Part shown: one piece after another, positions 15,645 to 17,289 of the stretch
How positions within the stretch are numbered: the stretch's first letter is position 1
How the letters are laid out: each line of letters starts with the position of its first letter
From: a virus
Taxonomy: Duplodnaviria; Caudoviricetes
DNA length: 64,000 bases
IMG/VR virus record: IMGVR_UViG_3300018012_000099
Strand: one strand, 5' to 3'
Position numbers and translations under genes: made by a program
Notes under the pieces: model-generated
What the model saw: only the letters and a program-made list of their open reading frames with translations
What the model was told of the DNA's origin: nothing
Databases searched by the model: none

Positions 15645-15715
15645 CCGCCTTTGGTATAGTGGCTGTGCCGCCAACTCTAAATTGGCAGAGCTGTGTTCAA
15701 ATCACAGAAGGTGGG
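15645..15715 (+). tRNA. Amber suppressor tRNA (anticodon CUA) #1, CCA not encoded
   Basis: Acceptor CCGCCTT/AAGGTGG, anticodon arm GCCAA-CTCTAAA-TTGGC, T-arm CTGTG-TTCAAAT-CACAG. The 3' end is followed by CAA. Confidence 0.85.
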
Positions 15716-15728
15716 CAAAGAAATAATT

Positions 15729-16049
15729 ATGAAATTATCCGAATATTATAAAATGATTAACGAAGTGGATGGTGTTCCTAATCCGCCCGATGACCCTCGA
15801 ATTACTAGAAAAGATTTAGAATTTAATGGTGGTAAAGGCAAAGAAGGGGCTGCTACTATTATTTTTTTGGATGGACAGCCAGTGTATCTTAATTGGTATA
15901 TCTGGGATCTAAATCATGAGTGGATGATTCAACAAGTGGAGTTGGAATTGGGCGGCAAAATAAAGTTATCTAATTGGTCTGGTGGTAATGGTCATGAGGG
16001 TGCAGATTTAGAGATGGTAAAGGAAAATGACACGCCTGCAAATAGCTAA
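15729..16049 (+). CDS. Hypothetical protein
   Basis: ATG 15729 (MKLSEYYK...). The track start at 15693 lies inside the tRNA. Confidence 0.55.
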   Translation: MKLSEYYKMINEVDGVPNPPDDPRITRKDLEFNGGKGKEGAATIIFLDGQPVYLNWYIWDLNHEWMIQQVELELGGKIKLSNWSGGNGHEGADLEMVKENDTPANS

Positions 16050-16992
16050 TCAATCTTATATTGATTCGTCTCTAGATTTGGAAGACGAGATCCAAAAACT
16101 TAAGAAGGAGCGCAACGCCGTCGTTCTCGCGCACTACTATCAAGAGAGCGAGATCCAGGACGCCGCGGACTTCATCGGCGACTCGCTGCAACTATCACAA
16201 GAAGCCGCCAAAACCAATGCCGATGTCATTTGTTTTGCAGGTGTGCATTTTATGGCAGAAACTGCCAAAATCTTGAGTCCGACAAAAATGGTGGTTCTAC
16301 CTGATTTAACTGCCGGCTGTTCGTTAGCCGATGGCTGTCCTGCCGACAAATTTGCAGCATGGAAGTCTCTGCACCCTAATGCCATAGTCATTAGCTACAT
16401 TAACTGTTCGGCAGAAGTCAAAGCCCTTTCTGATTATATTTGCACCTCTTCTAATGCGGAGAAGATTGTTCGACATGTCGCCGATCAAGGCAAACAGATT
16501 CTATTTGCGCCCGATAAACACCTGGGCGCACATATTATCAAGAAAACAGGCATCCCTATGACCTTATGGCAAGGAACGTGTGTGGTGCATGAAACATTTA
16601 GTGAGCGTAAGATTATTGCACTAAAAACACAGCATCCCGACGCTTTACTATTAGCGCATCCGGAATGTGAAGAAAGTATTCTGCGTATGGCTGACCATAT
16701 TGCGTCTACTACCGGTATCCTTAAGTTTGCGGTTAGTAGTTCGGCAAAAAAGTTTATTGTGGCAACCGAATCGGGTATTCTGCATCAAATGAAAAAAGCC
16801 GCTCCTGATAAGGAGTTTATTCCGGCGCCACCTGAAGCCAATTGTGCTTGTAATGAGTGTCCCTTCATGAGAAAAAACACTTTAGAAAAGGTATATTTGT
16901 CTTTAAGAGACTTAACTCCTCAGATACTAATATCCGAGGATTTAATGAATCGTGCGAGAGTGTCCATCGATCGAATGATGGCTTTGAGTTGA
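16027..16992 (+). CDS. nadA: Quinolinate synthase
   Basis: 'AVVLAHYYQ', 'GDSLQL', 'GVHFMAETAK', 'AGCSLA', 'YINCSAEVKA', 'CVVHE', 'CNECPFM' (4Fe-4S cysteines). Confidence 0.95.
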   Translation: MTRLQIANQSYIDSSLDLEDEIQKLKKERNAVVLAHYYQESEIQDAADFIGDSLQLSQEAAKTNADVICFAGVHFMAETAKILSPTKMVVLPDLTAGCSLADGCPADKFAAWKSLHPNAIVISYINCSAEVKALSDYICTSSNAEKIVRHVADQGKQILFAPDKHLGAHIIKKTGIPMTLWQGTCVVHETFSERKIIALKTQHPDALLLAHPECEESILRMADHIASTTGILKFAVSSSAKKFIVATESGILHQMKKAAPDKEFIPAPPEANCACNECPFMRKNTLEKVYLSLRDLTPQILISEDLMNRARVSIDRMMALS

Positions 16993-17006
16993 AAGGTATA
17001 TGTATC

Positions 17007-17207
17007 ATGTGGTTATTTGAAATAATGGGTTTAACGGTAGTGGTTGGAACGTTCTTGGGTTTGGGCTGGCGCTTCATGGAAGATTTTTTGGAGAAACGTG
17101 CGGCACGTCGAGCATCAGAGTTAGAGGGCGATGAACAGCCGACAGACAATACACCAGAAATTGTAGTTGTTGCTACCACTGTAGCTACCAATTCTCAAAG
17201 TAATTAA
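17007..17207 (+). CDS. Small single-pass membrane protein
   Basis: N-terminal hydrophobic helix MWLFEIMGLTVVVGTFLGLGW. Confidence 0.5.
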   Translation: MWLFEIMGLTVVVGTFLGLGWRFMEDFLEKRAARRASELEGDEQPTDNTPEIVVVATTVATNSQSN

Positions 17208-17215
17208 TTATCAAG

Positions 17216-17289
17216 GTGCTCATAGCTTAAAAGTAAAGCCTCCTTCTCTAAAAAGGATTATCCGGTGGCAGAATCCGGTGGGCACTCCA
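17216..17289 (+). tRNA. Amber suppressor tRNA (anticodon CUA) #2
   Basis: Acceptor GTGCTCA/TGGGCAC, D-stem GCTT/AAGC, anticodon arm TCCTT-CTCTAAA-AAGGA, encoded CCA, atypical T-loop GGCAGAA. Confidence 0.85.

Follow-up and report, generated by a model that had tools for sequence, protein, structure and literature searches.

A 64,000-nucleotide (nt) stretch of DNA from a virus (Duplodnaviria; Caudoviricetes; IMG/VR record IMGVR_UViG_3300018012_000099), hereafter the window, carries two tRNA genes with the anticodon CUA, and we report here that these tRNAs are probably amber suppressors which gate a neighbouring PTH2-like hydrolase gene and a neighbouring HD-like gene through UAG codons in the leaders of those genes. 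Both tRNA genes would decode UAG, and would do so for a small set of codons lying 2-4 codons downstream of the start codon in neighbouring genes. In nearly all relatives of the phage the likely target is the PTH2-like gene, the HD-like gene is a further candidate in the sub-lineage of the window, and a short leader open reading frame (ORF) may be a third. Both genes encode genuine tRNAs; their expression and charging, the read-through itself and the purpose of the gate are what we infer. Dozens of related phages share the pairing of a CUA tRNA with a TAG-leader PTH2-like gene, and in the literature searched we found no account in which a hydrolase gene interrupted by TAG is coupled to a suppressor tRNA.

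TAG leaders in the PTH2-like gene and its neighbours

The PTH2-like gene (15261..15596, + strand) opens with a Shine-Dalgarno (SD) sequence, AAGGAA, and the codons ATG TGT TTA TAG, the TAG occupying positions 15270-15272. The sequence past the TAG, AAC GAA AAA CTG TAT ATT ATC GTA AGA, encodes the region of beta-strand 1, which in the predicted model spans residues 3-9 after the TAG, and the first canonical start codon past the TAG, the GTG at 15336, falls inside beta-strand 1. Assignment of the product to the family draws on the PTH2 model of Pfam (PF01981; 28.4 bits against a cut-off of 23), on a 59-sequence family profile that matches archaeal Pth2 structures (PDB 2zv3) with E = 1e-10, and on an AlphaFold model (pLDDT 96.8) with a TM-score of 0.77-0.83 to Pth2/Bit1. 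Five residues, Q20, H23, E76, D78 and T84, are invariant in the family. Standard pipelines mis-call the start of this gene.

The window comes from a huge phage. With its DnaE-like polymerase (57065-60589) as the query we recovered relatives from IMG/VR, contigs of 120-470 kb at 54-85% identity, and fetched G002 (120 kb), G003 (139 kb), G004 (433 kb, 97% complete), G005 (268 kb, a 62%-complete contig) and G007 (452 kb, complete with terminal repeats); the other records searched included the complete genomes G009 and G010. What we say of the phage genome beyond the window rests on these relatives. No close relative was found among GenBank phages, where a megablast search with the region gave no match, and the window DNA is present in at least 13 wetland metagenomes, none of them an RNA run.

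A TAG stands at codon 3-5 of the PTH2-like gene in the window and in G002-G005, G007 and G009 (7 of 7), the leaders of the relatives reading M-C-S-TAG, M-S-L-TAG, M-S-TAG or M-T-TAG. We extended the survey to 80 IMG/VR loci with a PTH2-like gene, out of 135 IMG/VR matches, and in 66 of the 80 an ATG, one to three further codons and a TAG directly precede the conserved (D)KLY(V/I) strand, across proteins that are only 35-70% identical. Among the 54 distinct leaders the TAG is followed by A in 37 cases, by G in 16, by C in one and never by T (purine in 53/54); a purine at this position is a context that favours suppression in E. coli. Fifty of these 54 lack any canonical start (ATG, GTG or TTG) in the stretch from the TAG to beta-strand 1.

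The leaders are tightly linked to CUA tRNAs. We compared 65 non-identical loci: 47 of the 53 distinct loci with a TAG leader have a CUA tRNA within 4 kb, as against 1 of the 12 without (odds ratio 86, Fisher p = 1.5e-7, computed ignoring shared ancestry). The distance to the nearest such tRNA is usually 100-2500 nt, with both on the same strand. In G007, which also has the TAG leader, no CUA tRNA is nearby, and one is encoded elsewhere in the genome. The first-pass annotation, made from the sequence of the window, had proposed that the two tRNAs serve read-through at a few sites, and this proposal is supported by the conserved 5' TAGs of the PTH2-like and HD-like genes, which track with CUA tRNAs.

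An alternative that would dispense with the CUA tRNAs is that ATG-x-x-TAG is a mini upstream ORF, with re-initiation at the codon that follows it (ATT, ATC, ATA or GTG). We consider this very unlikely, while noting that it has some purchase on the data: the codon after the TAG is ATT, ATC or ATA in 31 of the 54 leaders and GTG in the mycobacteriophages Bxz1 and Myrna, so that re-initiation at a near-cognate start is possible, and the phage has its own initiation factor IF3, the factor that governs the use of non-canonical starts. Yet TAG is the stop codon in all 66 leaders, although it is the rarest stop in these genomes, and its presence tracks with that of a CUA tRNA. Moreover, the next codon is not a near-cognate start in 22 of the 54 leaders (GTT, GTA, AAC, GGA, GGC, GAA or AAA), among them the window, where it is AAC.

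The HD-like gene (14681..15259, +) has a comparable leader, with the SD sequence GGAGGG followed by ATG CCC TAG (TAG at 14687-14689), the residues LELIRD and an internal Met, and its TAG is found at the same place in seven lineages. No model in Pfam or NCBIfam matches this family. In the Xanthomonas jumbo phage XacN1 the two proteins are joined: ORF364 (locus L176, 457-1293; AP018399, 243756-244595), annotated 'hypothetical protein', is a 279-amino-acid (aa) HD-like/PTH2-like fusion that shares 43% identity over 181 aa with the HD-like protein of the window (E = 3e-47). Fusion in XacN1 indicates that the HD-like and PTH2-like proteins are functional partners.

A third in-frame TAG (14203-14205) lies in the short leader ORF (14188..14229, +) that precedes a 131-aa gene and reads ATG AAG GAC TAT CTG TAG ATT AAA ACT CGT GCG CCT CCT TAA; the 131-aa gene is absent from G002-G005, so this TAG has no counterpart there. 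We rejected an HU-like gene (23890-24648 region, +) as a target. Its stop TAG (24262) directly precedes the in-frame ATG of a 127-aa ORF, to which suppression would fuse it; in the relatives the corresponding genes overlap or stand in different frames, so the fusion is not conserved. One more TAG that might be conserved, a third candidate (G005 214430; G003 126422), is common to two close relatives only.

Two unrelated families of CUA tRNA

tRNA #1 (15645..15715, +), of what we call type A, begins 48 nt past the stop of the PTH2-like gene and was called by ARAGORN as a tRNA with anticodon CTA at 15645-15716. Read directly, its acceptor stem contains C1-G72, C2-G71 and G3-U70 and is followed by the discriminator G73 and then by CAA, with no encoded CCA; the D loop is AGTGGCT, the 5-base-pair (bp) anticodon stem GCCAA/TTGGC encloses the loop CTCTAAA, the variable loop has 4 nt and the T loop is TTCAAAT. 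Its elbow elements (the AGTGGCT D loop, the TTCAAAT T loop and G53-C61) are thus intact, and its minimum-energy fold is a cloverleaf (z = -3.3). tRNA #2 (17216..17289, +), of type B, is non-canonical. It has G1-C72, U2-A71, U73 and an encoded CCA, an anticodon stem TCCTT/AAGGA around the same loop CTCTAAA, a D loop AAAAGTA with a single G in place of GG, and a T arm CCGG-T-GGCAGAA-T-CCGG with U53-U61 and the T loop GGCAGAA. Both tRNAs have a 7-bp acceptor stem, a 5-bp anticodon stem and a 7-nt anticodon loop with U33 and a purine at position 37. The first-pass annotation had described the anatomy of both molecules, and direct reading of the sequence bears out every detail. The heptamer CTCTAAA taken alone is not rare, with 19 copies in the window where 14 are expected.

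ARAGORN did not call tRNA #2 in the window, and the Rfam tRNA model (RF00005; gathering threshold 29 bits) reported neither tRNA at E <= 10, including in a 1.7-kb search, so that neither reaches its threshold. An alignment of tRNA #1 with four homologues from other contigs (n = 5) has 99% of its stem cells paired, as against 36-50% in slid controls, with compensatory changes in 11 of 21 pairs, and none of 500 shuffles did as well. For type B, where comparison among phages was decisive (n = 5; tRNA #2 with homologues in G002, G003, G005 and G009), 97% of cells are paired as against 41-56% in slid controls, 10 of 20 pairs are altered on both sides, again with none of 500 shuffles as good, and the homologues vary in all four stems. 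A covariance model built on type B (R1) scores tRNA #2 at 91 bits. The distinct members that it recovered number at least 11 and score 60-95 bits; each has the anticodon CUA and adjoins a PTH2-like gene, most encode CCA, and all have an unusual T arm of the form xxxxT-GKCRGRA-Txxxx. A search of IMG/VR for an exact 50-mer of tRNA #2 gave no match. It is on this covariation that we accept tRNA #2 as real, and both tRNA #1 and tRNA #2 are genuine tRNAs.

Could tRNA #2, or both tRNAs, nonetheless be non-decoding, for instance a pseudogene undergoing decay, an anticodon-nuclease decoy or a processing signal that resembles a tRNA? tRNA #2 lacks the elbow elements G18G19, T54-Psi55-C56 and G53-C61, it falls below the ARAGORN and Rfam thresholds, and although its minimum-energy fold is a cloverleaf, the energy is no better than that of shuffles (z = -1.2). 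Against this, the family has been maintained: its four stems all show compensatory changes, the CUA loop does not vary and the CCA is mostly encoded. The D and T loops also change together: GG goes with T55-C56 in G002, G003 and G005, a single G goes with G55-C56 in the window, and G009 has neither. We therefore regard a non-decoding role as most improbable.

Types A and B are two unrelated conserved phage families, and a third, canonical family (type C) fills one of the slots in G003, G004 and G005. Taking the slot after the PTH2-like gene and then that after nadA, the order is A,B in the window, B,A in G002 and B,C in G003 and G005. The CUA tRNA bodies beside PTH2-like genes amount to 54 unique sequences. 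Given such diverse bodies and such swapping of slots, the conserved feature is the anticodon and not the body of the tRNA. Nor is the TAG position kept as a sense codon in TAG-less PTH2-like homologues (one starts M-A-T-I-K-E-G-D-K-L-Y, for example), which together with the diversity of the tRNAs suggests that the residue inserted is probably immaterial, and the amino acid probably not important, for the PTH2-like gene.

The amino acid carried by either tRNA is a separate matter. Comparison with the nearest non-CUA phage tRNAs was uninformative (50-70% identity to mixed isotypes), and the sequence of tRNA #2 holds no usable identity signal. tRNA #1 had been described as Gln-like. Glutamine identity in E. 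coli calls for a weak 1-72 pair (U1-A72), G2-C71, G3-C70, G73 and G10, and the augmented D helix recognized by E. coli GluRS has U13-G22 with A46 and a 4-nt variable loop without position 47. Type A has a Glu/Gln-style D arm: each of its five members pairs U13 with G22 and has a variable loop of 4 nt (AGAG or AGAA). G73 is present in most of them, and the CUA anticodon differs from the Glu and Gln anticodons only at position 36. In tRNA #1 itself G73 and G10 are present, whereas C1-G72, C2-G71 and G3-U70 do not fit; one type A member, L112, does combine U1-A72 with G73. The likeness thus holds for the D arm, the variable loop and G73 and fails at the weak 1-72 pair and G2-C71, which leaves a Gln-like identity possible and unproven. 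The pair G3-U70, an alanine determinant in E. coli, occurs within type A in tRNA #1 only, the other four members having G3-C70, and tRNA #1 has G73 where tRNA-Ala has A73. We also rejected the label tRNA-Pyl, which ARAGORN gave to tRNA #1 because of its anticodon only: tRNA-Pyl has a 6-bp anticodon stem, a 3-nt variable loop and a very small D loop, as against 5 bp, 4 nt and 7 nt here.

Bacterial-type glutamyl-tRNA synthetase genes (gltX; 390-403 bits) are present in G004 (L083, 1495-2835) and G007 (L082, 1429-2835), in the latter 15 kb from its sole CUA tRNA, and their product might charge the Glx-like type A tRNAs. Further unusual tRNAs stand beside PTH2-like genes at L130 (5722), L115 (5743 and 5822), L117 (5936), L121 (7644) and L127/L128 (about 5300-5450), and include a predicted ochre suppressor (anticodon TTA) and, at a locus where the PTH2-like gene has an in-frame TGA, a predicted opal suppressor (TCA). 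The tRNAs with 'ttca' or 'tca' loops beside TAG-less PTH2-like genes (L115, L117, L121, L127 and L128) could not be confidently parsed by eye, and ARAGORN assigns 4-base 'ttca' anticodons to some of them.

Genetic code and genomic setting

The window phage is standard-coded and not TAG-recoded. It had been noted from long genes that these contain no in-frame TAG, and this holds across the window; we found no internal TAG in any conserved protein of the window or of about 1.4 Mb of relatives, in agreement with the earlier view that the genome is not recoded. ORFs of at least 150 aa under code 11 span 73-88% of the DNA in the window, G002-G005 and G007, and reading TAG as sense joins no real genes in the window. 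Our test for recoding applied a codon-usage filter followed by a search for homologues that span the TAG, since a plain all-vs-all comparison was dominated by off-frame ORFs conserved at the DNA level; the filter left 19 TAGs in about 1 Mb with coding potential on both sides, none of which is spanned by a credible homologue. As a stop codon TAG is rare: of 63 long ORFs in the window it ends two, and in the relatives its share is 4-9%, with spurious ORFs counted too. Release factor 2 (RF2; prfB) is encoded in G004 (410 bits) and G007 (402 bits), above the cut-off, and was not found in the complete genomes G009 and G010 or in the 62%-complete contig G005.

The depletion of TAG as a stop and the RF2 of the relatives are also what one would expect of incipient recoding without regulation, in which TAG stops are lost, suppressors and RF2 are then acquired, and the leader TAGs are the first neutrally recoded codons. 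That path is a published one (Borges et al., 10.1101/2021.08.26.457843; low-GC phage), and the fully TAG-recoded Lak phages carry the same PTH2-like family. Neutral TAGs would, however, be scattered, and here they sit at codon 3-5 of one gene family with a purine after 53 of 54, while the roughly 1.4 Mb of relatives is free of internal TAGs. Incipient recoding without regulation therefore seems to us unlikely. If the tRNAs gate their neighbours, the phage may shield itself by avoiding TAG stops, with relatives adding RF2, and both features would fit a state of the infected cell in which UAG is read as sense.

The tRNAs and their presumed targets lie in an island with the order Thr tRNAs, transfer-messenger RNA (tmRNA), HD-like gene, PTH2-like gene, CUA tRNA, nadA, CUA tRNA, IF3 gene and tRNA-Arg. 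The phage-encoded tmRNA (13232..13585, +; Rfam RF00023, 89.9 bits, E = 1.9e-34) is upstream of the HD-like and PTH2-like genes. Between the two tRNA slots, in the window and its relatives, is the quinolinate synthase gene nadA (16027..16992, +; Pfam NadA, E = 6.5e-119), and a predicted 60-aa membrane protein (17025..17207, +), conserved in G002, G003 and G005, has its stop 8 nt before tRNA #2. Downstream are the gene for the phage-encoded translation initiation factor IF3 (17832..18374, +; Pfam IF3_N 1.6e-31, IF3_C 2.6e-26) and tRNA-Arg(CCU) (18686..18760, +; ARAGORN, and 57.7 bits with Rfam), the latter marking the syntenic end of the island at the same position in relatives.

All island genes and both CUA tRNAs share one strand, and no terminator that separates them is convincing; sigma-70-type promoters and intrinsic terminators in the island do not rise above background, their counts equalling those of shuffles. 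Co-transcription of the tRNAs with the genes is probable, since they share a strand and follow coding genes by 48 nt and 8 nt.

ARAGORN did not call the tmRNA of the window, whose tag, read from the alignment, is ANDNGFAMAA; the tags in relatives are ANDNAAPMALAA, ANDNAFVPMAQAA and ADEFAFAEAA. An extra tRNA at 12166-12237 (+), also missed by ARAGORN, scores 30.1 bits with the Rfam tRNA model and has a non-canonical T loop; its anticodon loop TTTGTAT implies tRNA-Thr(UGU), and it adjoins tRNA-Thr(GGU) at 12246-12322. Clusters of Thr tRNAs occupy the same place in the relatives.

The first-pass annotation had also suggested that the tRNAs could disrupt UAG termination in the host, which the purge of TAG stops and the RF2 of relatives make plausible. 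Taken further, the tRNAs might be directed at the host altogether, for read-through of host UAG stops or for anti-defence acting on termination or tRNAs, with the gated genes cleaning up the consequences. Avoidance of TAG stops by the phage, RF2 in the relatives and the clustering of the tmRNA, the PTH2-like gene and IF3 round the tRNAs would all suit such a role. Nevertheless, it leaves the tight cis linkage of a CUA tRNA to a TAG-leader gene unexplained, and we think it rather improbable as the whole account; it is compatible with gating and need not exclude it.

A proposed suppression gate and its known counterparts

We suggest that the leader UAG works as a gate. Without a charged suppressor the ribosome would stop after a 3-residue peptide and no enzyme would be made, and with the suppressor the full protein would be produced. 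If tRNAs and genes are co-transcribed, this would build in a delay or checkpoint, such that the HD-like and PTH2-like enzymes, which would act on tRNA ends, appear once amber suppression works. The purpose may be timing, a check on suppression, control of the damage done by read-through in the host (a tmRNA is nearby), or feedback on the suppressor.

The last of these could be taken as a closed loop, in which the suppressor tRNA is itself the substrate of the PTH2-like and HD-like enzymes, whether at its 3' end or while it carries an amino acid or a peptide. The leader UAG would then measure the strength of suppression and hold it at a set level, a tRNA-based analogue of prfB autoregulation, and the interchangeability of bodies A, B and C would mean that only the decoding of UAG matters and not the residue inserted. 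We put this forward as a tentative extension that is doubtful at present.

Several further points weigh against gating, in addition to the near-cognate codons after the TAG and the neglect of shared ancestry in the linkage test. An internal Met lies 6-7 codons past the TAG of the HD-like gene, whose protein could therefore arise without read-through. The fused gene of XacN1 has no TAG, despite the CUA tRNAs of that phage. The G-M-G-K-G-K loop that follows beta-strand 1 in archaeal Pth2 is not conserved in the PTH2-like family, which by profile alignment has a 2-residue deletion and no Lys there; a catalytic role is ascribed to the GKGK loop of the archaeal enzyme. Finally, tRNA #2, without the canonical elbow contacts, may decode poorly.

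Recoding of stop codons by phage suppressor tRNAs and RF2 is an established framework, of which the arrangement in the window is a minimal form confined to particular genes. Such code-change machinery is known from the TAG-recoded Lak, crAss-like and Agate phages (Borges et al., bioRxiv 10.1101/2021.08.26.457843), and the same authors regard suppressor tRNAs in standard-code phages as an intermediate on the way to recoding. Like the recoded phages, the window and its relatives combine CUA tRNAs, RF2 (in relatives) and a scarcity of TAG stops with an apparent dependence of certain genes on suppression. In the recoded phages, however, many late, structural or lysis genes have in-frame TAGs and coding density under code 11 collapses, neither of which is true of the window phage; here conserved in-frame TAGs are confined to codon 3-5 in one or two small genes beside the tRNAs. 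Another parallel is XacN1, a cultured jumbo phage of standard code with two CUA tRNAs, in which read-through of 18 terminal TAG stops was considered and no target was found (PMC5852040). It resembles the window in these respects and in having HD-like and PTH2-like homologues, and differs in that its fused ORF contains no TAG, so that the target we propose is absent there.

The same protein family occurs, at 36-41% identity, in the cluster C mycobacteriophages Bxz1 and Myrna, where it is annotated 'peptidyl tRNA hydrolase'. The leader reads GAAGG-C-ATG-TAG-GTG in Bxz1 (L170, 2971-2979) and GGAGGC-GTG-TAG-GTG in Myrna (L171, 2974-2982), and a CUA tRNA, labelled 'tRNA-OTHER' in Bxz1 and 'tRNA-Ser' in Myrna, lies 130-300 nt downstream of the hydrolase. 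In these phages the leader is reduced to the start codon and annotators begin the gene at the GTG that follows the TAG. As this GTG could be a start, expression need not depend on read-through in Bxz1 and Myrna. The published huge-phage genome LR756500 likewise has ATG AAG TAG ATT followed by a CUA tRNA.

Early codons that sense part of the translation apparatus have precedents in bacteria: prfB, encoding RF2, is autoregulated through an early in-frame UGA, and infC through its AUU start. The window shares this logic, except that prfB and infC sense their own products, whereas the component sensed here would be a tRNA encoded beside the gene. The bar minigenes of phage lambda, ORFs of 2-4 codons and a stop, are a classic source of peptidyl-tRNA drop-off, which is cleared by Pth. 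Here, too, a mini-ORF is involved and heads a Pth-like gene, but bar minigenes are separate toxic elements and do not read through into a hydrolase.

To these precedents the window adds two unrelated suppressor families at one locus with swapping of slots, one of them non-canonical and missed by standard tools, as well as a second candidate for gating and, through XacN1, a fusion that ties the two enzymes together. As type B escaped both ARAGORN and the Rfam tRNA model, suppressor tRNAs are under-counted. Genetic-code engineers may also take an interest in natural amber suppressors that differ from one another and have odd bodies. A UAG at codon 3-5 has been kept across dozens of huge-phage lineages and in cultured mycobacteriophages. 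Suppressor tRNAs in standard-code phages have been an unexplained oddity, and this conserved UAG gives them a concrete and testable client.

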